Shown here: positions 10,557 to 44,261 of the stretch, piece after piece
How positions within the stretch are numbered: the stretch's first letter is position 1
How the letters are laid out: every line of letters begins with the position of its first letter
Source: a bacterium
GTDB lineage: Bacteria > Auribacterota > UBA3054
Length of the DNA: 47,299 nucleotides
Direction: 5' to 3'
Assembly (NCBI GenBank): GCA_017539325.1
Contig: JAFYHD010000104.1
Coordinates: 1 to 47,299 of the forward strand
Made by a program: the position numbers and the translations under genes
Notes under the pieces: model-generated
The model's database searches: none
What the model was told of the DNA's origin: nothing
The model's input: only the letters and a program-made list of their open reading frames with translations

Positions 10557-10565
10557 GGGAATGGC

Positions 10566-11501
10566 CTATTTCGTCCTGAAAGCTTTAATCTCTTTGGCGA
10601 TCATCTTCACCAGCTCGACTCTAGACTCATAGCTGGCCCAGGAGATGTGCGGGGTAAGGATGATCTTGTCAGGGTCGTTGACCTGGAAGTAGGGATGGTT
10701 GAAAGGCAGAGGCTCCTGAGTGTAGGTGTCGCAGGCCGCGCCGGAAATGGTGTAGTCGTTCAGGCACTGCACAAGATCCTCTTCGTTAATGATCCCGGCG
10801 CCGCCGAAGTTCAGAACGCAGGCTGTCGGGCGCATTAGCTTCATCATCTTGTTGGTGATGAGGTTTATCGTCTGGGAGTTGGCGGGAGCATGGACGGAAA
10901 CAACATCAGAGCGCCTCATCAGATCTTCCATCGTGACAGCCTCGTAGCTTCCCACGGGCTCCTCATCCCTCAGAGGATAGTAGATTATCTTCATTCCCAG
11001 CGTCGTCGCCATTTCAGCGACCCTGACGCCGATCTTGTTCATGCCGATGATGCCCCAGGTCTTGCCGATGATGTCGAAGAAATTCTGACTGCTGTCGGTG
11101 AAGGAGTGGCTTCTGGAATAGGCGCCGGACTTCACCGATTTGTCGAAGTAGTGGAATTTGCAGACAAGGTTCAGCATAGCCGCGACCGTGCACTGCGCGA
11201 TCGAATTCACGGCGAACCCCGTGATCCCGACGACCTTGATGCCGTTCTGTTTGGCGTATTCCAGATCGATGTTGGGAATATTGGAGTCGATCGTCACGAT
11301 CAGCTTAAGATTGCGGGCGCGCTCCATGTTGATGGCGCGGATGGGAACGTGGCTGGCCACCACGCATTCGCAGTTTTTGATACGTTCAGTAAGGTCAAGA
11401 GCGCCTGAACTGGCGTAGACCATGAGAGCCCCCTGCTCTGCTATGGGCGAGAGATCAAGCATGCCGAGCGAATCGGCGTCCAAAAAAACGATATTGAACA
11501 T
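10566..11501 (-). CDS. D-isomer-specific 2-hydroxyacid dehydrogenase (glycerate/hydroxypyruvate reductase-like)
   Basis: 311 aa. NAD-binding motif 'GIIGMNKIGVRVA', 'SVHAPAN', 'LNFGGAGIINEEDL' and the catalytic His context 'ILTPHISWAS'. Confidence 0.85.
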   Translation of the reverse strand: MFNIVFLDADSLGMLDLSPIAEQGALMVYASSGALDLTERIKNCECVVASHVPIRAINMERARNLKLIVTIDSNIPNIDLEYAKQNGIKVVGITGFAVNSIAQCTVAAMLNLVCKFHYFDKSVKSGAYSRSHSFTDSSQNFFDIIGKTWGIIGMNKIGVRVAEMATTLGMKIIYYPLRDEEPVGSYEAVTMEDLMRRSDVVSVHAPANSQTINLITNKMMKLMRPTACVLNFGGAGIINEEDLVQCLNDYTISGAACDTYTQEPLPFNHPYFQVNDPDKIILTPHISWASYESRVELVKMIAKEIKAFRTK

Positions 11502-13201: not shown

Positions 13202-14512
13202 TTACTTGACAGCGGGACGACCTATGCTGTAATAGGTGAAGCCCAGTTCCTTCATTTCGGAAGGCGAATACTGGTTGCGGCCGTCGAAGATGACAGGCTG
13301 CTTCAAAAGTTCCTTGATACGCGGGAAATCCGGAACTCTGAATTCGTTCCATTCGGTCAGAAGCATCAGTGCGTCGCAGTCTTTGAGCGCTTCGTAAGCT
13401 TCGTCGCAATAAGTGATCGTGTCGCCGAAGACAGCCTTGGCGGTCTCTTTCGCCACCGGGTCGTAGCCCTTGACCTTAGCTCCGGCTTCCAAAAGCAGCT
13501 TTACGATGATCTGCGAAGGAGCGTCGCGCATATCGTCGGTCTGAGGTTTGAAAGCCAGTCCCCAAAGGCCGAAAGTCTTGCCCTTAAGGTCGCCCTTGAA
13601 ATGTTCCTTGGCCAATTCGAAAAGCACTTCTTTCTGCCTGGCGTTGACCTTTTCGATGGCGTCTATCATGATCGGCTCATAATCGTTCTCCCTGGCCGTG
13701 GCAGCCAAGGCCTTAACGTCTTTCGGGAAGCAGGAGCCGCCGTAGCCGATGCCGGAATAGAGGAAGCGGCGTCCGATGCGGGAGTCGAGCCCCATCGCGA
13801 TCCTGACTTTCGTAACGTCCGCGCCGACTTTCGAGCAGATGTTGGCGATCTCGTTCATAAAGGAGATCCTGGCGGCCAGCATGCAGTTCGAGGCGTATTT
13901 GCACATCTCGGCGGACTTGTTGTCCATGACAAGGATGTCTGCGCCGGATTTGGTGAAGGGATCGTAGAGGATGCGCATGATCTCGGCGGCCTTCTCGCTG
14001 GTCGTGCCGATGACCACGCGCTCAGGTTTAAGGAAATCATCCAAAGCCGCGCCTTCCTTTAAAAACTCGGGGTTCGAGACAACGTCGAAAGGCTGCGTGG
14101 TGCCCTGGGAGAGCACTTCCTTGACTTTTGCGGCCGTGCCGACGGGGACCGTGCTCTTGTTGACGACGATCTTGTAGCCGTTGAAGTAAGGCGCGATCTC
14201 TTTCATGACCGCCCAGACGGCGGAAAGGTCCGCTTTGCCGTCTTTGCCGGTCGGGGTTCCCACCGCGGAAAAAATAACGTCGGAATTTTCGATGGCATAG
14301 CGCATGTCGGTCGTGGGAACAAGGCGCTTGGCGGCCAAATTGCGCTTGACCATCTCCTCCAGGCCGGGCTCGAAAATAGGGATCTCGCCATTAAGCAGTT
14401 TTTTAATCTTCGCTTCGATCTTGTCGACGGTAATGACAGTGTTGCCGCTGTCAGCGAAACAGGTGGCGGCCACTAAGCCGACGTATCCGGTACCGATCAC
14501 TGCTACTCTCAT
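13202..14512 (-). CDS. ugd: UDP-glucose 6-dehydrogenase
   Basis: 436 aa with 'MRVAVIGTGYVGLV', 'NPEFLKEGAA', the catalytic Cys context 'GIGYGGSCFPKDV' and 'GLAFKPQTDDMRDAP'. Confidence 0.92.
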   Translation of the reverse strand: MRVAVIGTGYVGLVAATCFADSGNTVITVDKIEAKIKKLLNGEIPIFEPGLEEMVKRNLAAKRLVPTTDMRYAIENSDVIFSAVGTPTGKDGKADLSAVWAVMKEIAPYFNGYKIVVNKSTVPVGTAAKVKEVLSQGTTQPFDVVSNPEFLKEGAALDDFLKPERVVIGTTSEKAAEIMRILYDPFTKSGADILVMDNKSAEMCKYASNCMLAARISFMNEIANICSKVGADVTKVRIAMGLDSRIGRRFLYSGIGYGGSCFPKDVKALAATARENDYEPIMIDAIEKVNARQKEVLFELAKEHFKGDLKGKTFGLWGLAFKPQTDDMRDAPSQIIVKLLLEAGAKVKGYDPVAKETAKAVFGDTITYCDEAYEALKDCDALMLLTEWNEFRVPDFPRIKELLKQPVIFDGRNQYSPSEMKELGFTYYSIGRPAVK

Positions 14513-18043: not shown

Positions 18044-18654
18044 TTACAGCTTCTCCTCATCGCCTTCCTTTATCACGAAATTCTCCTTGGGCGCGTAAAC
18101 GCCCTCGCCCTTGGCCCAGACGCCGAAGGTCATAAGGAAGATCTTGATGTCGAGCCAGAGCGACCAGTGCTCCACGTACCAGACGTCAAATTCGATCCGC
18201 TGCGGCCAGGTCAGGGAGTTGCGGCCGTTGACTTGGGCCCAGCCAGTCACGCCGGGCGGGACCAGAAGACGCTTCTTCTGGCGCTCGTCGTATTCCGCCG
18301 TCTGGTAGAGCAGCGTCGGGCGAGGTCCCACGACGCTCATTTCACCCAGAAAGATGTTGATGAGCTGCGGCAGTTCGTCGAAGCTCGTCTTCCTTAGGAA
18401 ATTCCCGACTTTCGTGATCCTCGCATCGCCTTCTCCGGTATAGAAGCCTTCCTTGTCAGCTCCGACCGTCATGGTCCGGAACTTGTAGATCATGAAGGGC
18501 TTGTTGTCTTTCCCGGCCCTTTCCTGCAGGAAGAAGACCGGTCCCTTGCTGTCGAGCTTAATTAGGACAGCGATAACGAGCCACGGCAGGGCGCAGAAAA
18601 TGAGCCCTGCTATGGCGATCACTAGATCGAGAACTCTTTTAAGAAATCTCTGCA

Positions 18655-18655
<1 letters not shown>
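18044..18655 (-). CDS. Small monotopic phosphoglycosyl transferase (bacterial sugar transferase, PglC/WbaP C-terminal type)
   Basis: 203 aa with 'KRVLDLVIAIAGLI', 'SKGPVFFLQERAGKDNKPFMIYKFRTM', 'DELPQLINIFLGEMSVVGPRP' and 'PGVTGWAQVNGR'. Confidence 0.88.
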
Positions 18656-20625
<1,970 letters not shown>

Positions 20626-20626
<1 letters not shown>

Positions 20627-23436: not shown

Positions 23437-23469
23437 TAAATAAAAAGCGGGCGGCTTTGAGCCGCCCGT
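23437..23469 (-). terminator. Rho-independent terminator after the FGE-like operon
   Basis: The GC-rich hairpin pairs gcgggcggc with gccgcccgt (23447-23469, loop tttga). On the minus strand it is followed by TTTTTATTTA. It lies 27 nt after the stop at 23497. Confidence 0.7.
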
Positions 23470-23496
23470 TTCATGATCGTATAAACTTTGAAACGC

Positions 23497-24726
23497 TTAC
23501 TTAACGATGCAGAGCCTTACGCCCCTATTGGGATTGCAGTCCGCCTTGAAGACGTGCATTCTTCTGCCGGAACGGGATCTGATGGCCCATTCGTTGTAGG
23601 CGCCGCCCCTTATGACGCGGTCGTTTCCGGTCTCGGGGCCGACGGGGTCGACGGTAAGAGCGGTGATGTTGTCAGCGTATCTGTCAATGCACCATTCCCA
23701 AACGTTTCCGTGCATGTCATAAAGACCGAGCGCGTTCGGGATCTTCAACCCGACCTGATGCAAAGAGCCGCCGTTTCCGGTATACCAGCCAAGATTGTCG
23801 AGATCGCTGTTGGAAAGACCGCTGCCGGCGCCGTCGCCAAGCCAGGCGGTGCCGTTGTTCCAAGCGGTCGTCGTTCCGGCGCGGCAGGCTTTTTCCCATT
23901 GCGCTTCCGTAGGAAGATCGAAAATGAAGGAATTGTTGGCAAGAGCGCGGAGCTTGCCCAGGATGCTGTCAGCGTCCACCCTGTAGTCGGTGTACTGCGG
24001 CCAGGTGGTGCCGAAATTTTCGCCTCTCAGTTTAACATAAGAAACGTTCGTAAGCGGGAAGGTGTTGTTGGGATCGAGGCTGCCGCTGTTGGAGATGTTC
24101 TCGCCAAAGAGCCTGACGTATTGCCCCTGCGTCAATTCGAAAACGCCGATGTAATAGGCTTTCGTTATTGTGACGGTGTGAAGCACTTCGTTGTTATTGT
24201 TGTTGAAGTGGCCGGTCTCGTCTTCCGGGGAACCCATCTCGAAAACGCCCGGTTCCACGCGGCGGAACCAGAGCTCGCCGGTCTGGGCGGCTTCCATCGT
24301 CGCCTTGGTGAGCGTGGAGCTCACACTCATCGTCTTGCTCGCGATGTTATAGCGGAGGTAAGCGGCTTCGTCGGTGATCTCCTTGGCGACCACGCCGATC
24401 TTCATGTTCGTGGTGTCGATCGCGCGGCCGGAAGTGTTGGAATCCCAGGTGAGGCGCTTCTCGCCCGCACCGATGACGATCCCGCAGGAGCCGTCGCCGA
24501 CGGTATCCAGCATTTCAAAGACGTCGCTGCCGTTGACGTTGGCGTAAAACTTAACGCTGTAAACGGGGAGCGACGAATCGCTCTCTTTCAGGGTGTAGCT
24601 GATGTCGACCTTGCCGTTCCAGGGCCAGCGCTGCTGGCACTTGATGTTTGAGACCACGTCGTCCGCGGCGGAGGCGGCAAGAACAGCCGCAAAGGCAAAC
24701 ACCGTTAATATTCTCTTTATTTTCAT
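23497..24726 (-). CDS. Secreted FGE-sulfatase (SUMF1/DUF323, C-type-lectin fold) domain protein, paralog A
   Basis: 409 aa. Signal peptide 'MKIKRILTVFAFAAVLAASA'. The N-terminal module has 'CQQRWPWNGKVDISY'. FGE-domain motifs are 'WFRRVEPGVFEMGSPEDETGH', 'DLPTEAQWEKACRAGT', 'YDMHGNVWEWC' and 'RGGAY'. Confidence 0.85.
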   Translation of the reverse strand: MKIKRILTVFAFAAVLAASAADDVVSNIKCQQRWPWNGKVDISYTLKESDSSLPVYSVKFYANVNGSDVFEMLDTVGDGSCGIVIGAGEKRLTWDSNTSGRAIDTTNMKIGVVAKEITDEAAYLRYNIASKTMSVSSTLTKATMEAAQTGELWFRRVEPGVFEMGSPEDETGHFNNNNNEVLHTVTITKAYYIGVFELTQGQYVRLFGENISNSGSLDPNNTFPLTNVSYVKLRGENFGTTWPQYTDYRVDADSILGKLRALANNSFIFDLPTEAQWEKACRAGTTTAWNNGTAWLGDGAGSGLSNSDLDNLGWYTGNGGSLHQVGLKIPNALGLYDMHGNVWEWCIDRYADNITALTVDPVGPETGNDRVIRGGAYNEWAIRSRSGRRMHVFKADCNPNRGVRLCIVK

Positions 24727-24754
24727 ACAGTTTCCTGAGTTGATTCCTTTAAAA

Positions 24755-26086
24755 CTACTGAATTATGATCGCGGGCCTGAAGCCGATGGAGGAAGTCTTC
24801 ATATTGCCGGTCGAACCCTTCTCCGGGGCGCAGGCGAAACGTCTCGCCACTCTGGCGCGGACCGCCCATTCGTCCCAGGCGCCGCCGCGCAGAGAGCGCG
24901 TGCCGCCGGTCGCGGGTCCCGGTGAGTCAGCGCTCACATAAGAGCCGCCGTGATAAGCTCTGGTAATGCACCATTCCCAGACGTTTCCGTGCATATCGTA
25001 AAGCCCGAACGCGTTCGGAAGTTTCTGGGCGATCTCTTTGCAGCTTGTGTACTGGGTGTTCTCGCTGTACCAGCCGAGCAGGTCAAGATTGTCGCAGGCC
25101 CTTTGTTCGGCCTCTATCTCGACGATCTCAACGTCCTCGCCGTCGCCCTCGACGGGTTCCACAGGTTCGCTTTCATTCGCTTCAGATTCCGCGACGAACC
25201 AGGAGACGCCGTTGTTCCAGGTATTCGTCGTTCCGGCGCGGCAGGCCAGCTCCCACTGGCTGTCGGTCGGCAGGTCGAAGATCACGCTGTTGGCGACGGA
25301 AGAACGCATGGTATAGAAGACGCTGTCCGGGTCCACGCGGTAATCCTGGTACTGGGGCCAGGTGCTGCCGGCGTTCCTGCCTCTCAGGTCATAGTAGGAA
25401 ACGTTGTTGACCGGGCAGAGCAGTTCGCCAGGGCTGGAAGTCGAGGGATTCGTTCCCGTAATATTCTGATACTGGGCCTGCGTCACTTCGAAGACGGCGA
25501 TGTAGAAGGTCTTGGTCACGCTCATGACGCGCTGGATCTCAGCGGCGGCGTTCCTCAAGTGGCCGACCTCGTTTTCAGGAGAGCCTGTCACGAAAGTTCC
25601 GGGCTCCACTCTTCTGAACCACATCTGGCTCGTCTTGCAGGCTTCGTTGTTCAGATCCGGGCCTTCCTTGCTCAGGTTCAAAGTGCCGTCGCTTAGGGTA
25701 AGGCAGATGTATCTGGCGTTCACGGTCACATCCTGGGCGGTGATGCCAACGCTGAGCTTCTGCGTGCTGGTGAAAGGCTTGTCAACGGAAGCGTCCCAGG
25801 TCACGCGCTTGACGCCGGAACCGAAAACGTAGCCCTTGGCGCCTTCGCCTTTCAGGCTCTCGAGCCTGAAGGGCTCGCCGTTGTCGATCTTTCCGTAGAA
25901 AGCGATGTTGAAGATAGGCGCGGAGGTCTCGTTGGTAGTTTCGATGGAATAGTCGATGTCGACCTTGCCGTTCCAGGGCCAGCGCTGATGGCAGCTGACG
26001 CTGACGCTGACAACGGGCGTGTCAGCAAAAGAGGCTAAAGTCAAAAAACAAACCGAGAGTATGTTCAAATACGTTTTCATGATCAT
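24755..26086 (-). CDS. Secreted FGE-sulfatase (C-type-lectin fold) domain protein, paralog B
   Basis: 443 aa. Signal peptide '...CFLTLASFA'. It has 'CHQRWPWNGKVDIDY', 'WFRRVEPGTFVTGSPENEVGH', 'DLPTDSQWELACRAGT', 'YDMHGNVWEWC' and 'RGGAW'. An acidic insert 'ESEANESEPVEPVEGDGEDVEIVEIEAE' is absent from paralog A. The start overlaps the upstream stop (ATGA). An alternative ATG lies at 26080. Confidence 0.85.
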   Translation of the reverse strand: MIMKTYLNILSVCFLTLASFADTPVVSVSVSCHQRWPWNGKVDIDYSIETTNETSAPIFNIAFYGKIDNGEPFRLESLKGEGAKGYVFGSGVKRVTWDASVDKPFTSTQKLSVGITAQDVTVNARYICLTLSDGTLNLSKEGPDLNNEACKTSQMWFRRVEPGTFVTGSPENEVGHLRNAAAEIQRVMSVTKTFYIAVFEVTQAQYQNITGTNPSTSSPGELLCPVNNVSYYDLRGRNAGSTWPQYQDYRVDPDSVFYTMRSSVANSVIFDLPTDSQWELACRAGTTNTWNNGVSWFVAESEANESEPVEPVEGDGEDVEIVEIEAEQRACDNLDLLGWYSENTQYTSCKEIAQKLPNAFGLYDMHGNVWEWCITRAYHGGSYVSADSPGPATGGTRSLRGGAWDEWAVRARVARRFACAPEKGSTGNMKTSSIGFRPAIIIQ

Positions 26087-26958
26087 TTGACCCTCTTAAT
26101 AAGAAGCATTGCAAGGGCGAAAAAGAAAAAGACGCCCGGTTCGGGAACAAGGTTGATGGTCGCGGAAGCGTTCTCGCTGCCGAAGACCGTGTCGCCGTTA
26201 TATACTGTATAGGTAAGGGAGTAGGAGGCGTTCCTGGGCAGGACGGTGGGGTCGACGCCCGAGTAATCCCAGCTGTAGTCGCCCTGGTCCTCGCCGGAGC
26301 TGGTGAAGACCGTGTAAGGTTCGACGGATGCGGAGAAAATGCTCGGTTCGGAAGATTCCTTTTCCGTGATCTGGATCTTAACGTTCCTTTCATAACCAAC
26401 GATCCAGTCGGTGCTGTAAGTGATCTTCGCCGGGGTGTCGAGTTCCAGCGTCGGACCGAGAACGCTCACATTGTCAAGCTCAAAAGAATCGGACCAAGTC
26501 GCGTCCACCCGGATGTCACGGGAAAGCGTGACATAAACGATCTCGGTATCCACAACATAAGTCACGCCGTTGGTAGTGTCGTTGATGGTATGCGTGACGG
26601 TGTAAACTTTTTCTCTGGGAAGAACGGCAGGGTCGGTGTTGCAATATTTCCAGCAGAAAGTGCCCTCAAGGCCGTTGACGTCAGTGGAGAAAATATTCTG
26701 TTCAGAAACACCCTCGGCGTTCGCCTTTACTTCAACGCTTCTTTGGAAGCCGGTGTCAGCCCATCTGGTGCTGTAGTCAAGTTCATCCAAAAAATGGATC
26801 TCGATAGGGTTCGCCGCGGTGTTGGGGAGGTTAACCGTGTCGAGGGCGGCGTCGTTCGACCAGGCTTCGCAGACAGCGCTTACGCAATCAGCCTCCCCGG
26901 CTAAGGAAGGCAAGTTGAGAAGCACCAGCAGCAATGATGTAAAGATCGCTTTTTTCAT
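26083..26958 (-). CDS. PEP-CTERM-anchored secreted protein with two tandem ~115-aa modules
   Basis: 291 aa. Signal peptide 'MKKAIFTSLLLVLLNLPSLA'. The C-terminus 'VPEPGVFFFFALAMLLIKRVK' has PEP, a hydrophobic helix and a basic tail. The internal duplication shows as 'LDT..(n)..IEIHFLDELDYSTRW...DPAVLPREKVYTVTHTI' versus 'LDN..(n)..AKITYSTDW...DPTVLPRNASYSLTYTV'. Confidence 0.75.
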   Translation of the reverse strand: MKKAIFTSLLLVLLNLPSLAGEADCVSAVCEAWSNDAALDTVNLPNTAANPIEIHFLDELDYSTRWADTGFQRSVEVKANAEGVSEQNIFSTDVNGLEGTFCWKYCNTDPAVLPREKVYTVTHTINDTTNGVTYVVDTEIVYVTLSRDIRVDATWSDSFELDNVSVLGPTLELDTPAKITYSTDWIVGYERNVKIQITEKESSEPSIFSASVEPYTVFTSSGEDQGDYSWDYSGVDPTVLPRNASYSLTYTVYNGDTVFGSENASATINLVPEPGVFFFFALAMLLIKRVK

Positions 26959-27026
26959 ATCTATATGACTCTTTCTTTTGTTTACTTTTTAAGCTTTTTC
27001 CCAGGAAAAAAACACACTGAAGGTCA

Positions 27027-27035
27027 ACTTTATCA
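27027..27035 (-). promoter_or_regulatory. Weak candidate extended -10 element (TGATAAAGT) for the PEP-CTERM/FGE operon
   Basis: The minus strand reads TGATAAAGT, 68 nt upstream of the ATG at 26958. It is the only TGnTAnnnT match in the 175-nt leader region and a poor hexamer. Confidence 0.2.
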
Positions 27036-27133
27036 AAGCTGTCAACAAAAATCAAGCAAGCCAAAATCGCAAGAGGTCAAACAGCGTATTTTAAAGCACT
27101 TGATTTTTTGAGCGGTTGTTGAAAATACCCTAT

Positions 27134-27165
27134 AAAAAAAAAAACGGGAGAGGAAAACTCTCCCG
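27134..27165 (-). terminator. Rho-independent (bidirectional-looking) terminator after the esterase gene
   Basis: A perfect 8-bp hairpin pairs cgggagag with ctctcccg (27145-27165, loop gaaaa). It is flanked by an 11-A run on the plus strand (a U-tract for the minus strand) and by TTTTT on the other side. It lies 30 nt after the stop at 27196. Confidence 0.75.
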
Positions 27166-27195
27166 TTTTTATAGCCCGGATTACGGTCCCGAATA

Positions 27196-29019
27196 TCAGA
27201 ACCAGGGGGCGTTGTTCTTGAATTTGCCCTGGCTGTCAAGGAAGATGTTGGTCGAGGCCTCGTAGTCCCCAATTTTGACCTTGAAAGGCACCGAAGAATT
27301 GAAGGGAATATTCTGCAGTCCCTCGCAGTAGGCGCTGCTGGTGGTCAGGGTCTTCAGATTGCACTGGAAGAAGTCCTTGTTCGGCTTGGAGTGGATCTTG
27401 CCGGCGACCTTGTCGTCGCTCGTTTTCTTCTTGTAGTTCGAGACGAAGGTGTTGGCTTTCGTCCAGGCGCCCTGCTCCAAGGGGAAGGTCAGCGGACCTA
27501 TGGTCACGCTTCCCTCTCCGTTGGGCGCCACCCACACCAGGTTCGTCTGGGTGATGTTGGAGATGTAGAAGTTGAGGCCGGTGCGCTTCTTGTTCACGAT
27601 GACTTTCTTGATCCTGAAATCCTTGCTGCCCCGGAATACCGTGATTGAAACGTTGTTGGTCAGATGGTGGCCGCTGACGGCGTAAACGCGCAGGACGTTA
27701 TTGCCCTTATAAAGCTTGGCCGTGAAGGCCCAGTTCACGCAGTTGGTCGAAACGTAGGTGTCCCCTTCCCCTCTCTGGCCCTTGACGGACAGGTAGACGT
27801 TGCTGACGCCGCTGTCGGCGTAGGCCGTGCCGTAGATGTCCACAGTCTCTTCGTAGGTGAAGTATTTCTCGCCGGCCTTGTGCGAGAGGATCTCGATCTC
27901 GGGCTTGGTCTCTTTCGGAACTCTCAGGTTGACGAACGCCCAGTTGGTGTAGCCGTTGTTGGCGATGGCGTAAGCCTTGATCTTATTGGCGCCTTCCTCG
28001 AGGTTCAGCTCGCACTGCCAGTTGGTGGTTCCTTCCGCGACGAAGTCTTTTGTTCCGCTGGCGGAGACTTGTTTAACGGTCACTTTCTTGATACCGTCAG
28101 CAAATTCCGCCGTTCCGGTAAGGGTATATTTTCCCTGGACCGCCGGAACCTCATCCTCGCCCTCGTCCTTCCCGTCAAGGATGATCTTGATGTCCGGGAA
28201 GAGCGCCAGCTGCTTGGAGAAGTGGTCGAGATGCTCTGGGATCCTGGCACGCCAGTATTTCCAGTCGTGCTCTCCGTCGGGCCTTATGTAAACAAGATCA
28301 ACGTCTCTTCTACGTCCTAGATCCATAAGGCAATTGGCCATATCCATGTTTATATTCGCCAGATTATAAGTACTCAGCCAGACGTCCTGGTTGCCGCAAT
28401 CCATACGAAGCTTGATGAATTTCTTGGGGGCGACGGCCGCGGCCACCTCGTTAGTATGGAGGGTGCTGACGCCGTCCAAAAGTTTGCTGATCTTGGGCCC
28501 CACGAAGGCGCCGCTCATGGAGGAGGCGGCGCAGTAGCGGCAGTTGAAATAGGCGTCGCAGCAGCCGGCGATCCTGAAGGCCGCGTAGCCGCCCATACTG
28601 ACGCCGCTGACGCCGCGGATGTTCTTCACGCGGTATTTCTGCGCGATGTGTTTCGGCAGGTCGCGGCACACGGCGCCCATGTAGCCGTTGCCGTACTCGA
28701 ACCAGGAGTTTTCATACACGGCGCCTTTCCAGCGGCTGCCCTGAGGGAAGATCATGATGAACTCATTGGTGTGGTCCGTGCCCATGAAGGTCGCGTAGGC
28801 TTCCTCATACCAGGTCTGGTCGCTCTCGTCGCGGCCGTGCAGGAAATAGATGACCGGATAGTACTTGTTGGTCTGCCAGTTGTAGCCGGAAGGAAGTAAG
28901 ACGCCATACCTAAGGTCTCTGCCGACGCTGTCAGAATGGTAGACCTTGTTGGTCTCCCAGACCATGGCCTGGGCGGCGAACGAGACTGTTAAAAGGAAAA
29001 AGAACAACAGTTTCTTCAT
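27196..29019 (-). CDS. Secreted alpha/beta-hydrolase esterase (esterase D / CE1-like 'putative esterase' family) with C-terminal Ig-like repeats
   Basis: 607 aa. Signal peptide 'MKKLLFFFLLTVSFAAQA'. It has 'YPVIYFLHGRDES', the nucleophile elbow 'GVSMGG' and a His context 'DGEHDW'. Two Ig-like repeats follow ('...TNWQCELNLEEGANKIKAYA' and '...VNWAFTAKLYKGNNVLRVYA'), then a further beta-rich domain. Confidence 0.8.
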   Translation of the reverse strand: MKKLLFFFLLTVSFAAQAMVWETNKVYHSDSVGRDLRYGVLLPSGYNWQTNKYYPVIYFLHGRDESDQTWYEEAYATFMGTDHTNEFIMIFPQGSRWKGAVYENSWFEYGNGYMGAVCRDLPKHIAQKYRVKNIRGVSGVSMGGYAAFRIAGCCDAYFNCRYCAASSMSGAFVGPKISKLLDGVSTLHTNEVAAAVAPKKFIKLRMDCGNQDVWLSTYNLANINMDMANCLMDLGRRRDVDLVYIRPDGEHDWKYWRARIPEHLDHFSKQLALFPDIKIILDGKDEGEDEVPAVQGKYTLTGTAEFADGIKKVTVKQVSASGTKDFVAEGTTNWQCELNLEEGANKIKAYAIANNGYTNWAFVNLRVPKETKPEIEILSHKAGEKYFTYEETVDIYGTAYADSGVSNVYLSVKGQRGEGDTYVSTNCVNWAFTAKLYKGNNVLRVYAVSGHHLTNNVSITVFRGSKDFRIKKVIVNKKRTGLNFYISNITQTNLVWVAPNGEGSVTIGPLTFPLEQGAWTKANTFVSNYKKKTSDDKVAGKIHSKPNKDFFQCNLKTLTTSSAYCEGLQNIPFNSSVPFKVKIGDYEASTNIFLDSQGKFKNNAPWF

Positions 29020-35052: not shown

Positions 35053-36471
35053 TTATTCCTGTCCGGGAACGACAGCCAAAGAGGCGGCGGCGATAGCCTG
35101 GCCGTGGCGTTTGTCGCGTTCGCTGGGGGTGTGGAAAGCGATCTTCTCGGCGAGTTCGGGGAACTCGGCCTTCAAGGTTTCCTGCGCCTTCTCAAGGATG
35201 ATGGCGCCGCCTTCACCGCTCGTCACGCGGCCGAGGCTCAGGATGTGGCGGATATCGTAGAAGGAAGCGTAATGCGCCACGCCGTAGCCCATGAAGACGC
35301 CGATGGTGTTGTAGATCTTCCTGGCTCTGGCGTCGCCTTCCGCCATCAGCTGCTGCACGTATTTGAGTTTTTCAGGCAGCTTCAAGCTTTCGTCGCATTC
35401 GATGCCGGCGGGCTTCAGAAGACGGCCGACGCACTGTTGGGAGAAATACTGCACGCCGCAGCCAGCGTCGCCGGACCACTCGTCCTTGGGAGCGTTTTCC
35501 CTGACGTCGACGGGCGCGAAAGCGAGCTCGTTCAACCAGGTCGTGATGTTGCCCTGGGAGGTGCAGTAGCCGACGGCTTCGCTGGAACCAAGCGCAATGC
35601 CTAAGACCGCGCCGTCATTCAAAGAAATGGAGCCGGCCAGCGCCGTCACTTCGCCGTCGTTCACGACTTCGAAGGGCACCTTCCACTCGTCTCTTAATCT
35701 TAAGAAGACATCCTTGGCGGCCGCGACCTTCACGGGATCCTTAACCGGAGCGTCCAGGACGCCGCGGAACAAAGAAGCGACCTTCACTCTGTTGTCGACG
35801 TAAACGCCGGCCGCGCTGCCGCCGATGGCGTCCACTCTCGGGAGTTTCGCCTTGGCGCTGTTCAGCATGGCCATGAATTCGGAATGGTGCCATTCGGGAT
35901 CGCTTTGCTTGACAGGATCCCAGACCACTTCCTCGCTGAAGACCACTTCGCCGTCGATGACGGCCGCGACTTTACGGTCGCTGGCGCCCAGGTCGAAACC
36001 GATGCGACAGCCTTTGAAATGGCGGCCCAGAGGAGCGGTGCTCTCTTTGGGAGCGGGCAGCTGACTGGCGTCGGCGACGCTCACGACCTCGAAGGGTTTC
36101 TCGTAGATGCGGCCGCCCATGATCTCAGCGTCGAAACGGCCCACTTCGGTCTCGGTGTAATGCTTTCTAAGATAATCGGCCAGGTACGCCGGGCCGGCCA
36201 CGGTGATGCGGTAGCCGCCGCGGGACCAGAGCAGGAACTTCACCAGCCTTTCGATGAAGGCCGGATTGTACTTCGCGTAAGCGCTGGTTTCCGGGAAGAC
36301 AATGGTCTCAAAATGGAAGACCGAGCCGTTGGCCTGTTCCAGGGCGATGGTGACCGGAACTCCGCCTTCGGCCTTCGCGGCCTGCGTGAAGTTACGGACG
36401 AAAATTGAGGAGGGAGAAAATTCTGGATCGAGTTCCGGGACGATCCTGCCGCCGAATAAAGATGTGTTCAT
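35053..36471 (-). CDS. ROK/polyphosphate-glucokinase-like ASKHA sugar kinase with N-terminal extension of about 150 aa
   Basis: 472 aa with 'IGFDLGASDRKVAAV', 'AIGGSAAGVY', 'VNDGEVTALAG' and 'GIALGSSEAVGY'. The N-terminal 150 aa are not recognisable to me. Confidence 0.65.
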   Translation of the reverse strand: MNTSLFGGRIVPELDPEFSPSSIFVRNFTQAAKAEGGVPVTIALEQANGSVFHFETIVFPETSAYAKYNPAFIERLVKFLLWSRGGYRITVAGPAYLADYLRKHYTETEVGRFDAEIMGGRIYEKPFEVVSVADASQLPAPKESTAPLGRHFKGCRIGFDLGASDRKVAAVIDGEVVFSEEVVWDPVKQSDPEWHHSEFMAMLNSAKAKLPRVDAIGGSAAGVYVDNRVKVASLFRGVLDAPVKDPVKVAAAKDVFLRLRDEWKVPFEVVNDGEVTALAGSISLNDGAVLGIALGSSEAVGYCTSQGNITTWLNELAFAPVDVRENAPKDEWSGDAGCGVQYFSQQCVGRLLKPAGIECDESLKLPEKLKYVQQLMAEGDARARKIYNTIGVFMGYGVAHYASFYDIRHILSLGRVTSGEGGAIILEKAQETLKAEFPELAEKIAFHTPSERDKRHGQAIAAASLAVVPGQE

Positions 36472-36535: not shown

Positions 36536-37645
36536 TTAATCCAAGATTTCAACGTTGGCCCTGGGTACTGTTATTATCTTTCCGTCCCCCATGTCGACAC
36601 TTAGGACGCGCACCTTGGAACCCGTGCCTATCTCTATAGGCTTCTCTATCAGTTCGTGCACTCTGCCGATCTGACCAAAATGCGGGCGGCGGATAAGGCG
36701 CACCCTTACTCCGGGCTTCAGCTCGGAGTTGTTGACGTGCAGATCCTCCTTGGTCTCGTAACCAGGCACGATCAGTTCCGGCCTGATGACGCCGGCCCTG
36801 ATCTGGGTGGCGCCGTTGATGGCCGCAATATGACCGTCCAGCGCGCGCAGAAGATGCGCTGTCCTTTCCGGCATGACCAGGTCGCCGAAGCCTTCCGTCA
36901 ATACTAAGGTGAAGGGAATTTCCTCTTCGCCCGTCACGGCCACGCCGATGTCGAAGCCCAAGAATCCCATCAGTTCGGAATCGACTATGCCGGCACCCAC
37001 GATGCCAAGTATGCCTTTCTTTTCCGCGGCGTAGAGCACCGAGCCGTCGATCTTACCCGGGAACATGATGATCTTGCCTTCCAAGTTTTCAGGCAACATG
37101 TCGGCGGTAAGGATCGAGCGTCCGTTGTCGAACCACAGAAGCTTGCCGTGCCTCTCCCCTCCTACGCCGAAGATGCCCTGCACCAGCGCGCCGTAGGTCT
37201 CTATAACCACGCCTTCCTCTTCCATGATCTCGACGATCTCACCGGAAATGTAGGCGTGGCAGAAAATAGGTTTCGGCACGCCGCGGACGCCGATGTTGCC
37301 GGAGAGTTTGGAAATGTATTCCAAGGACCCGTCTATGGGCGACGTGACGTTGTTAGTGATGAGGTTGAAGAAGACCGTCCGGCTGGCCAACAGTTCCTCT
37401 TTCTTAACGGGATCGCCGGCCTTTTTCAGAACGAACTTTTCCAGCTGGTCAGGACCGCAGCCCAGAATGTTCGCGGCCTTCACGACCGCGAGCGTTCCCG
37501 GCAGATCGACCTTCGCGACGACCGTCTCGGGCTCGACCTTGTCGCCCAGCTTCACCACCACCTCGCCCTTGACGGGCAGGCGGCGTGTTTTTCTTATCTT
37601 AACGTGCGGGCTTATCGTAAGCCCCGGAGTAAATGCATTTCCCAT
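36536..37645 (-). CDS. Conserved-looking hypothetical protein with N-terminal barrel-sandwich-hybrid-like and C-terminal KOW/SH3-like segments
   Basis: 369 aa. The N-terminus 'RRLPVKGEVVVKLGDKVEPETVVAKVDLPG' is lipoyl/biotinyl-like in shape but lacks the modifiable-Lys motif. The C-terminus is 'KPGVRVRLIRRPHFGQIGRV...KVRVLSVDMGDGKIITVPRANVEIL'. It starts 3 nt after the GlmL-like gene. Confidence 0.7.
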   Translation of the reverse strand: MGNAFTPGLTISPHVKIRKTRRLPVKGEVVVKLGDKVEPETVVAKVDLPGTLAVVKAANILGCGPDQLEKFVLKKAGDPVKKEELLASRTVFFNLITNNVTSPIDGSLEYISKLSGNIGVRGVPKPIFCHAYISGEIVEIMEEEGVVIETYGALVQGIFGVGGERHGKLLWFDNGRSILTADMLPENLEGKIIMFPGKIDGSVLYAAEKKGILGIVGAGIVDSELMGFLGFDIGVAVTGEEEIPFTLVLTEGFGDLVMPERTAHLLRALDGHIAAINGATQIRAGVIRPELIVPGYETKEDLHVNNSELKPGVRVRLIRRPHFGQIGRVHELIEKPIEIGTGSKVRVLSVDMGDGKIITVPRANVEILD

Positions 37646-37648
37646 AAT

Positions 37649-39451
37649 TTATTCCAGCGGCAGCGAAAGCGCGTGATAGTCTTTTAATCTGCGCTCGGCG
37701 TTCATGGTTTGGTCGTTGTCGAAAACGAGGGGCCTGCAGCGGCCGTCCAGCAGTATACCGGCCACGCCGCCGATCACTTCGGTCTCCATCGGCTTGCCAT
37801 AGCCTTTACCTACGTTGAAGCGCCTGGTCGGGAAGATCTGCACTCTGGCTTTCTTGCCGGTCGGCAGAGGCACTCTCAGAAGGTCCCCGCTCTTTATGGT
37901 TATCTTCTCATCCCGGCCGTCGATCTTGACTAAAACGTCCATGATCTTTGCGCCTTCCTTGGCCGTTCCCACCGGCGCGATGGCCGTTCCCAGAACGATC
38001 ATGCAGTCCTTGGCAAAAACTTCCTTGGCGGCTTCAGGATTCAATTGCGACATCACGCCCAATTGCGGCATCATGAAAATGGAGTCGACCGCCAGCTGCG
38101 TCACGCCTTCCAGCTGGAAAGCGTCCAGCATCATGAGAGCGGACTGCGTTCTGTCGGGAGCGTGCGAAAGCACGCCGCCCGAGCCTATGCAGAGGTCGAG
38201 CTTCATGAGATCGACCAGCACGGACTGATCGTTGTCGAGAGCGGAGCCGATGTCGCTGTCGGCGTCCTTTTGGTTGGCCGCCACGTCGACCGCCAGCGAG
38301 CGGTGGTGGATGAGGGAGAGTCGCAAGGCTTCCCTGGCCGCGGCCTGCTCGATGTATAGTTCTTCTTTTGTTTCCGGAATGGTCGTGGGACGGATCATCT
38401 TGTTGCGCAGAATGTCGCGCAGAACTTTCACGTCGAACTTGAAGGGCAGCCAGCGCAGAATGTTGTCCACGCCGCTTTCCGCCATAACGTTGCAGAGGCT
38501 GTAGCTCATGCCGTAGTTCGCGGAGACCGTGCGGTGGAAGTGACCACCGAAAACGGAGAAGACGTCCGTCGTGGCGCCGCCGATGTCGACGGCCAGAACG
38601 TTCTGGTGTCTTTCCCTGGCGACTTCCTGAATGATGATGCCGACCGCCGTGGGCGTCGGCATAATGTCCGCGGAAGTGATCTCCATCAGTTTCGGGTATC
38701 CCGGCGCCTGCTGCATGACGTGCTCCAAGAAGAGGTCGTGTATAGCCTGGCGCGCTTCCGCCACGTCTTCCCTGTTAAGGTCCGGCCTGACGTTGTTGAC
38801 GTTTCTGATTGAACACACTCCGCCCAGCATGTCTTCCACCACGTCTCGTGCTTCCACGTTGCCGCTGAAGATGACCGGCAGATTGAATCCCTGCCCGAAC
38901 CTGGGCTGGGGCTTGGCGGCTCTGATTATTTCAGAGATCATCTCGACGTGCCGTCTGGACCCGCCGTTGGTGCCGCCCGCCATCAAGATCATGTCGGGGC
39001 GGATGTGGCGGAGACGTTCTATTCTTTCGTAATTCTCCCTGGGATCGTCGAGGGAAATGGTGTCGATGACGATGGCGCCCGCGCCGAGGGCCGCTCTTTC
39101 CGCGCTGGCGCCCGAAATAGAGCCTACGATGCCCGTGCATGCCATTTGCAGGCCTCCCCCGGCTGAAGATGTGGAGAAGTAGGCATCCACCCCGTCCTCG
39201 CCCTTTCTGGGGCAAATGAGGTTCCTGTTCTCGTCCAGGAGACGGCGGCCCGTAATGTCCTCCAATTCCTCCACGGCGTTCTTGACGCCCACCGTCACGT
39301 CGTCGAAGGGCGCTTCCACCGTAGTGGGCGCCTCTCCCCTGCCGGCCAGACGGTAACCATCAGCAGTCTTGACGACCAGGATGGCTTTCGTCGTCGTGCT
39401 GCCGCAGTCGGTGGCCAGCATCACTTCCAGTTTCTCAGTGTCTTTTGTCAT
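37649..39451 (-). CDS. GlmL/MutL-family (glutamate-mutase-L-like) ASKHA-fold ATPase
   Basis: 600 aa. The phosphate-1 motif is 'LATDCGSTTTKAILV', phosphate-2 is 'VLAVDIGGATTDVFSV' and the adenosine-type motif is 'CIGSGGVLSHAP'. A C-terminal beta-rich domain adds about 120 aa. Confidence 0.8.
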   Translation of the reverse strand: MTKDTEKLEVMLATDCGSTTTKAILVVKTADGYRLAGRGEAPTTVEAPFDDVTVGVKNAVEELEDITGRRLLDENRNLICPRKGEDGVDAYFSTSSAGGGLQMACTGIVGSISGASAERAALGAGAIVIDTISLDDPRENYERIERLRHIRPDMILMAGGTNGGSRRHVEMISEIIRAAKPQPRFGQGFNLPVIFSGNVEARDVVEDMLGGVCSIRNVNNVRPDLNREDVAEARQAIHDLFLEHVMQQAPGYPKLMEITSADIMPTPTAVGIIIQEVARERHQNVLAVDIGGATTDVFSVFGGHFHRTVSANYGMSYSLCNVMAESGVDNILRWLPFKFDVKVLRDILRNKMIRPTTIPETKEELYIEQAAAREALRLSLIHHRSLAVDVAANQKDADSDIGSALDNDQSVLVDLMKLDLCIGSGGVLSHAPDRTQSALMMLDAFQLEGVTQLAVDSIFMMPQLGVMSQLNPEAAKEVFAKDCMIVLGTAIAPVGTAKEGAKIMDVLVKIDGRDEKITIKSGDLLRVPLPTGKKARVQIFPTRRFNVGKGYGKPMETEVIGGVAGILLDGRCRPLVFDNDQTMNAERRLKDYHALSLPLE

Positions 39452-39927: not shown

Positions 39928-42273
39928 TCAGGATTTGTTTATGAAAAGAAGTGATGTTCTGTATACCGCGGCCGCAAGGAAAAGCACGAGCCCCATTGTG
40001 TAGCAAATTATGAGCGCGCTCTGGTGGCTGACATGAGCCTGCAGCGTTATCGTGTGTTCGCCCGCGGAGACTTGCACCGCTCTCAGGGCGGCGTCGGCGC
40101 GCAGGATAGGCGTCGGCTTATCATCGAGCGTGGCTGTCCAGCCGGGATAATAGAGTTCGCTGAAGACGACGTACCCGGGAACTTCGGCGTTTACCTTCGC
40201 TTTGATCTCCTGCGGAGCGTAATCGGTCAGCGTCACTTTGCCGAAGGGGCCTTCCTCCCCTGCTTCGCCTGAGAGCTGCTCGGGAATGGAAGCGCCGCTT
40301 ATGACGACCTTGCGGGAGGGCTCGAAGTCATTCGACATGACGATAGAAGCGGGATCATCGTCTTCCCTTACCGCCGTGGGAACAAACCAAACTCTCGGCA
40401 TGGCGAAGATATTGTCCTTGACGAAAATGCCGTACTTGGAGAAGCCTCTGGCCCATTTCGGGATCTTTTCGGCGGGAAGCCTTGTCTGGTTGTTAAGGTC
40501 GTAGCGGATGTTGAAGATCTCGTCGAAACGCCTTTTGGACGCCTCGCCCTGCTTCCTGGCGTTCCATAATGGCTGCTCCCAGCTAGTCCTCGTCATGATG
40601 TAGCCGTTGACGGAATCAAGGCCCCAGATGACGGTCTTCTGCGTGGCCTGCACGGCGTCCCAGCGGTAGCGGCAGCGACCCTGAGGCCCCTTGGAGATTT
40701 GATCGCCTTTCAGCGCCATGGAAACGGGATTGACGGCGTTGGATTCCGCGGCGGACTGAGGGCAGGCGTTGATCTCGCCGCCGAAAGAGGCCAGGTCGAA
40801 AACTATGAGCGCGGCGAAGGCCCACTTGGTGATCGTCTGCTCTTTTTTGCAGGCGATGAGGTAGAGCGCAATGCCGATCAAAAAGATGACATACTGCCTC
40901 AAGACCGCGAAGTTGAAAACGGCTTTCGTAACGGCGTTGTCGGGAACCTTCTTAAGCCCGATGATGACGGCAATTCCGATGATAAAAAGGCTCGCGAAGA
41001 GGAAGAGCCAGAAACCCTTTTTTATTTCGGTCTTTTCAGTAGGCCAGAATTGGTCGAACAGGAAGGCGAAGAGCAGGCTAATGGGAAGCGAGATGAAGTA
41101 AGCGTACCTGACCGGGATCCTAAGGTTCCTCAGCGGCTTGACAAGATAAGCGAGGAAATACTGGAAGGGATTTTCAATTCCGTAGATGTAGAGCACCGCG
41201 ATAAGGGCGATCAGGAAAAAGACCAGCGCCCTGACGGAAAAATGTTTTTTCAGATAGGCCGGGACCAAGAGGAGCGCCAGGAAAGGCCAGAGCCCGGTGT
41301 AAGCCACGCGGCACCAGTACTGCCAGAATTGTCCGATGTGCCAGCTGTCCCCTCCCCAGAAGATATTCCAGTCGCTGCCGGAATTCGGCGCTTTCACGCG
41401 ACCGAAAAGATCGGGAATGATGTTCGTAAGGAAAAAGTACCAGCTCGCCTGGTCGGAAACGTTCTTGTAGATGTCCTGTTCGGGACGGCCGCTGTTGCCG
41501 TAATACTCCAGACCGGGAACGACAAGGATAGCGGAGATCAAAAGCCCGACGGCTAGGAAGAGCGCGCCCTGAAGGAGGAACCTTATGAGCGCCTGTTTTT
41601 CCTTCCTGAGCTCGATAAGTTCGTAAAGGAAGAAAGCGAAAAGGAAAGCCGCCATGTACGGCATCCTCTGGATAACGCCAACCAGAAAGCAGAAGCCAAG
41701 AGCGCCGCCGCCGATGACGGAAAGGGAAAGCGTTTTCAGGCTGAGCTTATCTTCCGCTTCCACTTTCATATGCTCCATTGCGAGCATGATCCAGGGAATG
41801 AAACCGTAGCCCGCGCCGTTGTTGGCGCTCGTCATCGTTATGACGACCGAGGCGCAGTAGCCGGCGGCCGCGGCAGCGGCCGTGGCGGCGGGACGCGAGA
41901 CCTTCCAGAATCTCAGGAGAAAATAAACGCCCAGCGCGCCGAAGAAGACCTGAAAAACGTAGATGAAGGAAACCGCTTTTTCAAAGGCGGCCAGGTCTTT
42001 CGCGAGAGGAACGCAGAGAAGGTACAGCGGGTAGAAGACGGAGTGCCAGGCCATCTGCCCGAAGGGACGGCCGAGGTCGTGATAAGGGCACCAGGCCGGG
42101 AAACGGCCCTGCAGAAGTTCGCCGGCGTTGAAGAAAAGCTTGGGAAGATCCTGGTTGGCGAAATCGCCGAAGAAGAAGCCCGTGCCTAGAAGCACGGCGC
42201 GGAAGAGCCAAAAAAGACCGAGGGCAAGCAGAGCTGCCCCGAACCATTTCAGCTCTTTCCTCTCGTTACCCAT
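39928..42273 (-). CDS. Large polytopic membrane protein, YfhO-like / GT-C-fold glycosyltransferase candidate
   Basis: 781 aa. There are more than 12 hydrophobic helices in the first ~500 aa, then a soluble (periplasmic) domain of about 230 aa and a final C-terminal TM helix ('ALIICYTMGLVLFLAAAVY'). This architecture is typical of YfhO. I recognise no sharp motif. Confidence 0.6.
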   Translation of the reverse strand: MGNERKELKWFGAALLALGLFWLFRAVLLGTGFFFGDFANQDLPKLFFNAGELLQGRFPAWCPYHDLGRPFGQMAWHSVFYPLYLLCVPLAKDLAAFEKAVSFIYVFQVFFGALGVYFLLRFWKVSRPAATAAAAAAGYCASVVITMTSANNGAGYGFIPWIMLAMEHMKVEAEDKLSLKTLSLSVIGGGALGFCFLVGVIQRMPYMAAFLFAFFLYELIELRKEKQALIRFLLQGALFLAVGLLISAILVVPGLEYYGNSGRPEQDIYKNVSDQASWYFFLTNIIPDLFGRVKAPNSGSDWNIFWGGDSWHIGQFWQYWCRVAYTGLWPFLALLLVPAYLKKHFSVRALVFFLIALIAVLYIYGIENPFQYFLAYLVKPLRNLRIPVRYAYFISLPISLLFAFLFDQFWPTEKTEIKKGFWLFLFASLFIIGIAVIIGLKKVPDNAVTKAVFNFAVLRQYVIFLIGIALYLIACKKEQTITKWAFAALIVFDLASFGGEINACPQSAAESNAVNPVSMALKGDQISKGPQGRCRYRWDAVQATQKTVIWGLDSVNGYIMTRTSWEQPLWNARKQGEASKRRFDEIFNIRYDLNNQTRLPAEKIPKWARGFSKYGIFVKDNIFAMPRVWFVPTAVREDDDPASIVMSNDFEPSRKVVISGASIPEQLSGEAGEEGPFGKVTLTDYAPQEIKAKVNAEVPGYVVFSELYYPGWTATLDDKPTPILRADAALRAVQVSAGEHTITLQAHVSHQSALIICYTMGLVLFLAAAVYRTSLLFINKS

Positions 42274-42274
42274 C

Positions 42275-44197: not shown

Positions 44198-44243
44198 AAT
44201 GGCCCTTCCGCTAAAATTATCTAGAAACACACACGTTTCGATT

Positions 44244-44252
44244 ATTTTAGCA
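44244..44252 (-). promoter_or_regulatory. Candidate extended -10 element (TGCTAAAAT) upstream of tkt
   Basis: The minus strand reads TGCTAAAAT in the 31-nt gap after the flippase gene, 46 nt upstream of the ATG at 44197. Confidence 0.3.
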
Positions 44253-44261
44253 TAATTCGAC

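Follow-up and report, generated by a model that had tools for sequence, protein, structure and literature searches.

The 47,299-nt window analysed here, positions 1 to 47,299 of contig JAFYHD010000104.1 from a bacterium of the UBA3054 lineage, carries an operon of three minus-strand genes that we refer to as g1, g2 and g3. The g1 protein consists of a signal peptide, two beta-sandwich modules and a PEP-CTERM-type tail, whereas g2 and g3 are paralogues that each combine a signal peptide with an N-terminal region of ∼130 aa (Nmod) and an FGE-sulfatase domain (FGE, formylglycine-generating enzyme). The reading that we favour, with a probability of roughly 0.55, is that the operon encodes a lineage-specific two-component envelope module in which a sorted g1 acts together with secreted, non-catalytic lectin-fold proteins of the Nmod–FGE (NF) family, the ligand probably being a glycan. 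It draws on the operon structure and domain content of the locus, the loss of the FGE cysteines, the genetic linkage of g1 with NF genes and the substitution of the head domain in one relative.

Linkage was assessed by scanning 185,579 species genomes for the Nmod motif, which yielded 60 loci that were then scanned with custom hidden Markov models (HMMs). In eight metagenome-assembled genomes (MAGs; buffalo, yak and goat gut plus bacterium UBP3_UBA3054), an Nmod gene lies beside or is fused to a g1-family module in 24 of the 24 informative loci, that is, Nmod genes on sufficiently long contigs. A published account treats UBP3 as a forestomach-specific candidate phylum (PMC8831627). The pairing takes five arrangements at different places within the same genomes: g1–NF–NF (type A, that of the window), NF–g1–NF (type B), a fusion in a single open reading frame (ORF; type C), a 154-aa one-module g1 followed by an NF gene and then by a subtilase that ends in a g1 module and PEP-CTERM (type D), and g1–NF–NF–NF (type E). 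The cassette flanks differ and are mostly housekeeping genes (argininosuccinate synthase, MatE, DNA-alkylation repair, glycosyltransferases). Between cassette types both partners are only 29–48% identical, and the identities of the g1 modules and the NF proteins co-vary (Mantel r=0.86, a value reached by 0 of 2000 permutations).

An earlier sequence-only reading of this DNA had proposed synteny of homologues as a check on the gene combination. Orthologous loci do keep the order g1–g2–g3, but their whole neighbourhood is collinear; we therefore dropped synteny among orthologues as evidence of linkage and relied on the paralogous cassettes instead. There the pairing withstands the check, holding in five cassette types at unrelated positions and in every informative locus, in-frame fusions included. 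These data show that the genetic linkage between g1 and NF genes is strict and ancient. That the cassette recurs in five versions per genome, sometimes fused, argues that the g1 and NF parts work together. The g1 family itself is small. A word search returned few homologues, all from unclassified ruminant MAGs, 1.84 billion cluster representatives, searched exhaustively with a profile, yielded just 37 clusters, and a metagenome scan with a narrower g1 alignment added only further type A and type C cassettes.

In the type C fusions, a segment made up of signal peptide, g1 module, LLPEP, helix and (G)RK runs in frame, with no intervening stop, into a second segment that reads M/I-KLF...AAA|DVVSG and continues with Nmod and the FGE domain. 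We found such fusions in five MAGs and six metagenome contigs, and seven of the 37 g1-family clusters, at 50% identity, have this architecture. In one fusion (L017) the junction has ATA in place of ATG, which precludes initiation of the second half at that codon. The fusions provide Rosetta-stone evidence that the g1 module and the NF protein are made together and reach the same compartment. The topology predicted for the product is coherent: the basic cluster would be cytoplasmic, flanked by the PEP-CTERM helix on one side and the second signal peptide on the other, and the two folded parts would point outward. The product would be an envelope ‘polyprotein’ requiring signal peptidase and exosortase. 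In the literature searched we found no mention of an internal PEP-CTERM followed by a second signal peptide. One relative, P0158 (854 aa), has the order g1 module, PEP-CTERM, signal peptide and Nmod variant, and then carries a Cthe_2159 domain (PF14262, E=2.6e-45), a carbohydrate-binding beta-helix domain, in the place where FGE normally sits.

The g2 and g3 proteins share 42% identity over 407 aa (E=4e-119), and both score well above the PF03781 cutoff of 23.3 bits (87.4 bits for g2 and 102.8 bits for g3). These results bear out the claims that the two genes are diverged paralogues and that each encodes a full FGE-sulfatase domain. The motif C-x-QRWPWNGKVDI-x-Y, previously noticed in the N-terminal region, is invariant in 8 of 8 orthologues and paralogues. 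Because g2 and g3 form separate orthologous series, their duplication must be old. The Nmod region has no Pfam or NCBIfam match. Its AlphaFold2 (AF2) model, built from a 28-sequence alignment, is all-beta and confident (pLDDT 87, pTM 0.77), with RWPWNG predicted to form the loop that joins strands 1 and 2. A Foldseek search with this model found no significant neighbour in the PDB; the best matches were generic Ig/FN3/CBM21-like sandwiches (best E=0.02, TM<=0.4). The ‘second short module’ of the sequence-only reading is, in the AF2 model, a beta-hairpin linker of ∼30 aa and not an independent domain. The acidic insertion of ∼33 aa in g2 is present in g2 orthologues and absent from g3; its sequence differs between species, but its acidity is retained.

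To assess the catalytic residues, we aligned 73 non-redundant FGE domains of the NF family with the human FGE sequence, itself checked against PDB entry 1Y1E (100% identity). The catalytic, Cu-binding cysteines of FGE are Cys336 and Cys341 in the human protein. The Cys336 column holds a cysteine in 0 of the 73 domains, g2 and g3 have no cysteine anywhere from RGGA to RxxRR, and their loop is 3 residues shorter. HMMER alignments to true FGEs end just before the catalytic loop. Judged by sequence, g2 and g3 are non-catalytic as formylglycine-generating enzymes, which answers a question that had been left for checking. It is hardly credible, then, that they are genuine FGEs maturing sulfatases encoded elsewhere, although they are members of PF03781 and their relatives are named ‘formylglycine-generating enzyme family protein’ in databases; we rejected this identity on the absence of the cysteine pair. 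Nor is there a sulfatase, EgtD-like, pyoverdine or Por/Gld gene among the 36 major ORFs of the window, in agreement with the earlier statement that no known FGE partner is nearby.

The solved structure closest by sequence to g3 is TvpA (2Y3C; E=5.9e-17 over aa 265–395), which ranks ahead of PvdO (5HHA), true FGEs and PorK among the PDB matches. TvpA is the variable protein of a diversity-generating retroelement (DGR) in T. denticola and, like g3, is an exported protein of FGE-sulfatase fold; it has no FGE activity, and its presumed mode of action is binding (PMC5758913). It differs in being diversified by the DGR and in having neither an Nmod nor a PEP-CTERM partner. The likeness to a non-catalytic binder, together with the replacement of FGE by Cthe_2159 in P0158, gives indirect support to the role of a binding head for the FGE-fold domain. 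Across 45 paralogues of the clade, conservation is highest in QRWPWNGKVDI and in the fold-core motifs FDLPTEAQWE and MHGNVWEWC, and variability is highest in the loops after RGG, which are the counterpart of the TvpA variable region, and in two other surface insertions.

If the parallel with TvpA were complete, g2 and g3 would be variable proteins diversified by a DGR located elsewhere in the genome, and FGE-sulfatase/C-type-lectin (CLec) proteins are indeed the largest class of DGR targets (PMC5758913). We consider this very improbable. The window contains no template repeat, its only repeats being g2 matching g3 at 68–90% identity, and no reverse transcriptase is found among the 36 scanned ORFs. 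Relative to strain L007/L008 (94–96% nucleotide identity), g2 and g3 vary least at their 3′ ends, with 0–6 differences per bin versus up to 16 mid-gene, and the C-terminal loops of both proteins are conserved among orthologues. An active DGR target was therefore rejected for this window.

The similarity to PvdO raises a different alternative, in which g2 and g3 are FGE-fold enzymes of another chemistry, PvdO-like oxidoreductases that modify g1, the envelope or an exopolysaccharide, with g1 as a substrate or cofactor carrier. PvdO, a periplasmic protein of pyoverdine maturation, is annotated as an enzyme even though it has none of the FGE cysteines; its family (NF051459) is the best NCBIfam similarity of g2 and g3 (E=7.6e-19 for g3), it is the second-best PDB match, and the tight coupling to g1 and the fusions would also suit an enzyme and its substrate. 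However, the score is far under the equivalog cutoff (67.8 versus 500 bits; 50–68 bits for g2/g3), pyoverdine genes are absent from the window, and the Nmod and the PEP-CTERM partner are additions relative to PvdO. The g1 family has no invariant cysteine, and the fused g1 modules have no cysteine at all. Moreover, with two or three diverged NF copies to a cassette and five types of cassette to a genome, the pattern resembles the diversification of a binding repertoire, and P0158 replaces the FGE head with the carbohydrate-binding domain. We regard an enzymatic role as unlikely.

Low-scoring NCBIfam hits to GldK/PorK and GldJ (E=1e-14 to 1e-5) and PDB matches to PorK chains (E∼2e-8) point to a further alternative, in which g2 and g3 would serve as structural components of an envelope machine and g1 as a partner subunit. 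PorK/GldK and GldJ, which belong to type IX secretion and gliding systems, are non-catalytic FGE-fold envelope proteins with dedicated partners, and in this they resemble the g2/g3 pair. Yet the similarity in sequence is weak, with scores far under the cutoffs (47–55 versus 350 bits for GldK and 22–29 versus 458 bits for GldJ). PorK/GldK and GldJ are lipoproteins, whereas g2 and g3 have no lipobox, their conserved cysteine lying ∼10 residues past the hydrophobic core of the signal peptide. There are no PorL/M/N-like or other machine genes, and hence no type IX secretion context, in the window or in the cassette flanks, and a multi-copy family with five paralogous cassettes per genome is atypical of a single machine. 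A role of this kind seems distinctly improbable.

After a predicted signal peptide (MKKAIFTSLLLVLLNLPSLA|GE), the g1 protein contains two internal modules of ∼115 aa with 31% mutual identity (E=1e-14); it has no Pfam or NCBIfam family match, and its module has no detectable homology to Nmod (hhalign probability 0.3%). Foldseek searches with the AF2 model of g1 gave weak matches to tandem FN3/Ig arrays (TM 0.2–0.3), so that the model indicates a beta-sandwich and nothing more specific. Family alignments show that P-E-P, the helix and the basic residues are invariant in every g1-family protein, down to ∼30% identity. PEP-CTERM proteins are defined by a tripartite C-terminal tail and require a diderm host (PMC3237569). 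The g1 protein has this layout, with the tripartite tail at its extreme C-terminus and a signal peptide at its N-terminus, and a TolB gene in the window (TolB_N plus PD40, 45964–47220) implies the diderm envelope that such proteins need.

Related tails in the clade reach the curated PEP-CTERM model TIGR02595 (cutoff 16 bits): the homologous tail of a type D subtilase with a g1 module scores 16.7 bits, and that of a non-g1 protein 18.1 bits. A simple tail pattern detects 37 PEP-type tails in the 4,426 ORFs of the collected loci versus 0 in shuffled sequences, and these include unrelated non-g1 proteins of 183–1514 aa, subtilases among them, in the same MAGs. Because of the tripartite tail, its invariance, the other PEP-tailed proteins in these MAGs and the two clade tails that pass TIGR02595, g1 is treated here as a divergent PEP-CTERM-type protein with a putative cognate enzyme. 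The description of g1 as signal peptide, two ∼115-aa modules and PEP-CTERM tail thus stands for the modules and, by eye and by its invariance, for the tail.

The mechanism that in our view best accommodates these observations is as follows. The g1 protein would be exported by means of the signal peptide, would stay in the inner membrane by virtue of the PEP, helix and basic tail at its C-terminus, and would then probably be processed and relocated by an exosortase-type enzyme. The g2 and g3 proteins would be exported as soluble proteins in which Nmod forms an Ig-like beta-sandwich and the FGE/C-type-lectin-fold domain a ligand-binding head, most likely for a glycan. They would act jointly with g1, probably in physical contact with it at the envelope or on the cell surface. 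The sequence-only reading had suggested a surface or extracellular binding module; the likeness to TvpA and the Cthe_2159 swap lend it indirect support, while binding, location and contact between g1 and NF proteins are what we infer.

Several results weigh against this two-component reading. Neither the whole window g1 nor its isolated tail matches TIGR02595, so the tail falls short of the curated model. Neither the major ORFs of the window nor the ∼0.9 Mb of collected loci yielded an exosortase; a screen of these loci by exosortase motif and count of transmembrane segments, with Pfam scanning of the candidates, returned only MatE, Gate, a Na/H exchanger and a flippase. The AF2 model of g1, all-beta with a C-terminal helix, is of low confidence (pLDDT 56). 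The putative binding loops diverge only modestly more than average, as do other surface insertions. Finally, MAGs of Kiritimatiellae, Lentisphaerae and Verrucomicrobia commonly encode Nmod–FGE proteins with the motif QR[YW]PWNGKVDI, lacking the cysteine, and have a g1 partner in 0 of 35 loci. Since Nmod and its motif are also kept where g1 is absent, docking to g1 cannot be the sole role of Nmod. Its invariant hairpin may pack against the FGE domain or have a binding target that all these bacteria share. Outside the clade, a Verrucomicrobia bacterium (UBA740) has a 184-aa TIGR02595-positive protein (L036:9324-9878) 21 nt upstream of an Nmod–FGE gene (9899-11068). We rejected this small protein as a distant relative of g1 (not detectably related, probability 2%), and the two genes may represent an independent, analogous pairing.

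A more elaborate possibility, which we hold only tentatively, is a hitherto undescribed surface-display system of an uncultured lineage from the ruminant gut. The g1 module with PEP-CTERM would be a scaffold that docks Nmod subunits with interchangeable heads and also anchors subtilases, and the fusion polyprotein would be cut twice, by signal peptidase at its internal signal peptide and by exosortase at its internal PEP-CTERM. The heads in question are the FGE/lectin fold and the Cthe_2159 beta-helix. By functional analogy alone, such a system might be compared with cohesin–dockerin display, in that an anchored g1 module would serve subunits that share Nmod and differ in their heads, and a protease bears the anchoring module. 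There is no sequence or fold relationship between cohesin–dockerin and g1/Nmod.

The layout of the operon agrees with what had been read from the DNA: three co-directional minus-strand genes, a g1 stop and g2 start that share ATGA at 26086-26083, and a 28-nt spacer with AGGAA between g2 and g3 (Table 1). The two flanking intrinsic terminators, singled out earlier as the clearest, are the strongest of the entire window in a terminator scan; in the remaining 37 kb, terminator-like hits occur at shuffle expectation (23 versus 23.6 and 26 versus 21.3) and none is comparable. In the orthologous locus L001, whose g1 is ∼67% identical to that of the window, both terminators are found at equivalent positions. 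The confirmed ORFs, overlap and terminators, and their retention in L001, indicate that the operon is real, insulated and conserved. As to the leader, the window itself gives no hit to the sigma-70 consensus, and at the equivalent place ahead of g1 L001 has a strong sigma-70-like candidate, TTGAAA-17-TATAAT (TG).

Table 1. Features of the g1–g2–g3 operon (window coordinates) and ORFs of fused relatives (coordinates within each locus)
Feature	Position	Strand	Remarks
g1	26958-26083	minus	ORF, 291 aa
g1 module 1	26515..26862	minus	aa ∼33-148; internal repeat
g1 module 2	26152..26496	minus	aa ∼155-269; type shared with one-module, fused and subtilase relatives
g1 C-terminal sorting tail LVPEPGVFFFFALAMLLIKRVK	26086..26151	minus	PEP motif, hydrophobic helix, basic cluster
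g2	26086-24755	minus	ORF, 443 aa; start overlaps g1 stop
g2 Nmod beta-sandwich	25631..26014	minus	aa 25-152; includes CHQRWPWNGKVDIDY; custom HMM E=4e-64
g2 FGE-sulfatase domain	24776..25609	minus	aa 160-437; PF03781 E=1.7e-24; without catalytic Cys pair
g2-specific acidic insertion ESEANESEPVEPVEGDGEDVEIVEIEAEQRAC	25094..25192	minus	aa ∼299-331, inside FGE fold
g2–g3 spacer, 28 nt	24727..24754	minus	AGGAA twice, ribosome-binding-site-like; read in DNA
g3	24726-23497	minus	ORF, 409 aa
g3 Nmod beta-sandwich and hairpin linker	24280..24666	minus	aa 21-149; AF2 model
g3 FGE-sulfatase domain	23512..24258	minus	aa 157-405; PF03781 E=3.1e-29
g3 loop RGGAYNEWAIRSRSGRR	23560..23610	minus	position of FGE Cys336/Cys341 loop; no Cys, 3 residues shorter
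Leader, 181 nt	26959..27139	minus	intergenic, presumed promoter region; sequence read
Upstream intrinsic terminator	27140..27170	minus	13-bp stem then T11; closes esterase gene, insulates 5′ side of operon
Downstream intrinsic terminator	23438..23468	minus	9-bp stem with 8 GC pairs (23468-23448), then T5; closes operon
Type C fusion ORFs	L013:5955-7730; L015:114-1877; L016:8261-9961; L017:9482-11212; L022:9159-10949
Further fusion ORFs			L069-L074; P0040, P0045-P0050

Viewed against known systems, the operon combines parts of familiar kinds, PEP-CTERM-type sorting signals and non-catalytic FGE/CLec-fold proteins. The g1 family, Nmod and the obligatory pairing, as well as the internal PEP-CTERM with a second signal peptide, are covered neither by the Pfam and NCBIfam models tested nor by the literature searched, in which we found no paper linking PEP-CTERM with FGE-like proteins. 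PEP-CTERM/exosortase sorting was reportedly described by Haft et al. in 2006. The g1 protein is like its substrates in the signal peptide and tripartite tail, the diderm host and the many PEP-tailed proteins, subtilases included, in the same MAGs. It differs in a window tail that scores under the model cutoff and has a short helix (13–14 residues), and in fusion relatives that carry the signal internally, ahead of a second signal peptide. Its tail matches those of other PEP-CTERM families only at E=0.04–0.16.

Gut and rumen bacteria of the PVC group encode non-catalytic FGE-fold proteins in great abundance (>5,400 relatives found at E<1e-20); these proteins are routinely mis-named ‘formylglycine-generating enzyme’, and almost none has an assigned role. 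The locus supplies this class with a fixed genetic partner; the natural fusion speaks for parts that are co-produced and co-localised, and the domain swap for glycan binding. A vague annotation can thus be turned into a testable hypothesis on the means by which an uncultured rumen lineage adheres to polymers or senses them. The linkage is solid, while the function is inferential and the lineage narrow. As an exosortase substrate, a PEP-CTERM that is internal and precedes a second signal peptide would be unusual and also useful, since the biochemistry of this sorting system is largely inferred.

The type D loci contain subtilases (Peptidase_S8) that end in a g1 module and PEP-CTERM (L020:5480-7876 and L026:4362-6902). 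Beside them, on the opposite strand, are genes for very large PEP-tailed proteins (L026:6973-11517 and L020:7947-10931), one of which is a subtilase of 1514 aa and the other a 994-aa protein without a Pfam match. Variations on the NF architecture also occur: an 815-aa protein has a tandem Nmod–FGE–Nmod–FGE arrangement (L032:6998-9445), and in other lineages a class of ∼700 aa (P0017-P0029) has one Nmod and two FGE domains. Two short contigs, L018 (3.2 kb; labelled Clostridia bacterium Tb.RUG.494) and L034 (1.9 kb; labelled Anaeroplasma sp.), carry NF genes typical of this Gram-negative clade and were probably mis-binned into Firmicutes- and Mollicutes-labelled MAGs.

In the window, a secreted protein with Esterase and Big_7 domains (27196-29019) is encoded directly upstream of the type A cassette, and a secreted protein with SASA and F5/8 type C domains directly upstream of type B cassettes (L019:5178-7091 and L025:7649-9667). 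The presence of carbohydrate-esterase-type neighbours, with lectin or Ig domains attached, beside two cassette types may be a coincidence or may reflect a functional neighbourhood. Polysaccharide-synthesis genes are scattered through the window (9336-10556, 13202-14512, 18044-20626 and 39928-45728). They encode GT1, UDP-glucose dehydrogenase, Bac_transf, epimerase, GT2, a YfhO-like protein and a Polysacc_synt flippase, with no exosortase among them. PEP-CTERM proteins are usually associated with exopolysaccharide, and the scattered genes fit this association. Horizontal acquisition of the region was considered and rejected, the GC content being 0.51–0.59 across it with no island signal. Further along the window, two ORFs without a Pfam family (472 aa, 35053-36471; 369 aa, 36536-37645) adjoin a PF13941 ‘MutL protein’ gene (37649-39451), and a similar pair of MutL and a 372-aa protein of no assigned family lies ∼2 kb upstream of the type C fusion in L017 (4298-7224).

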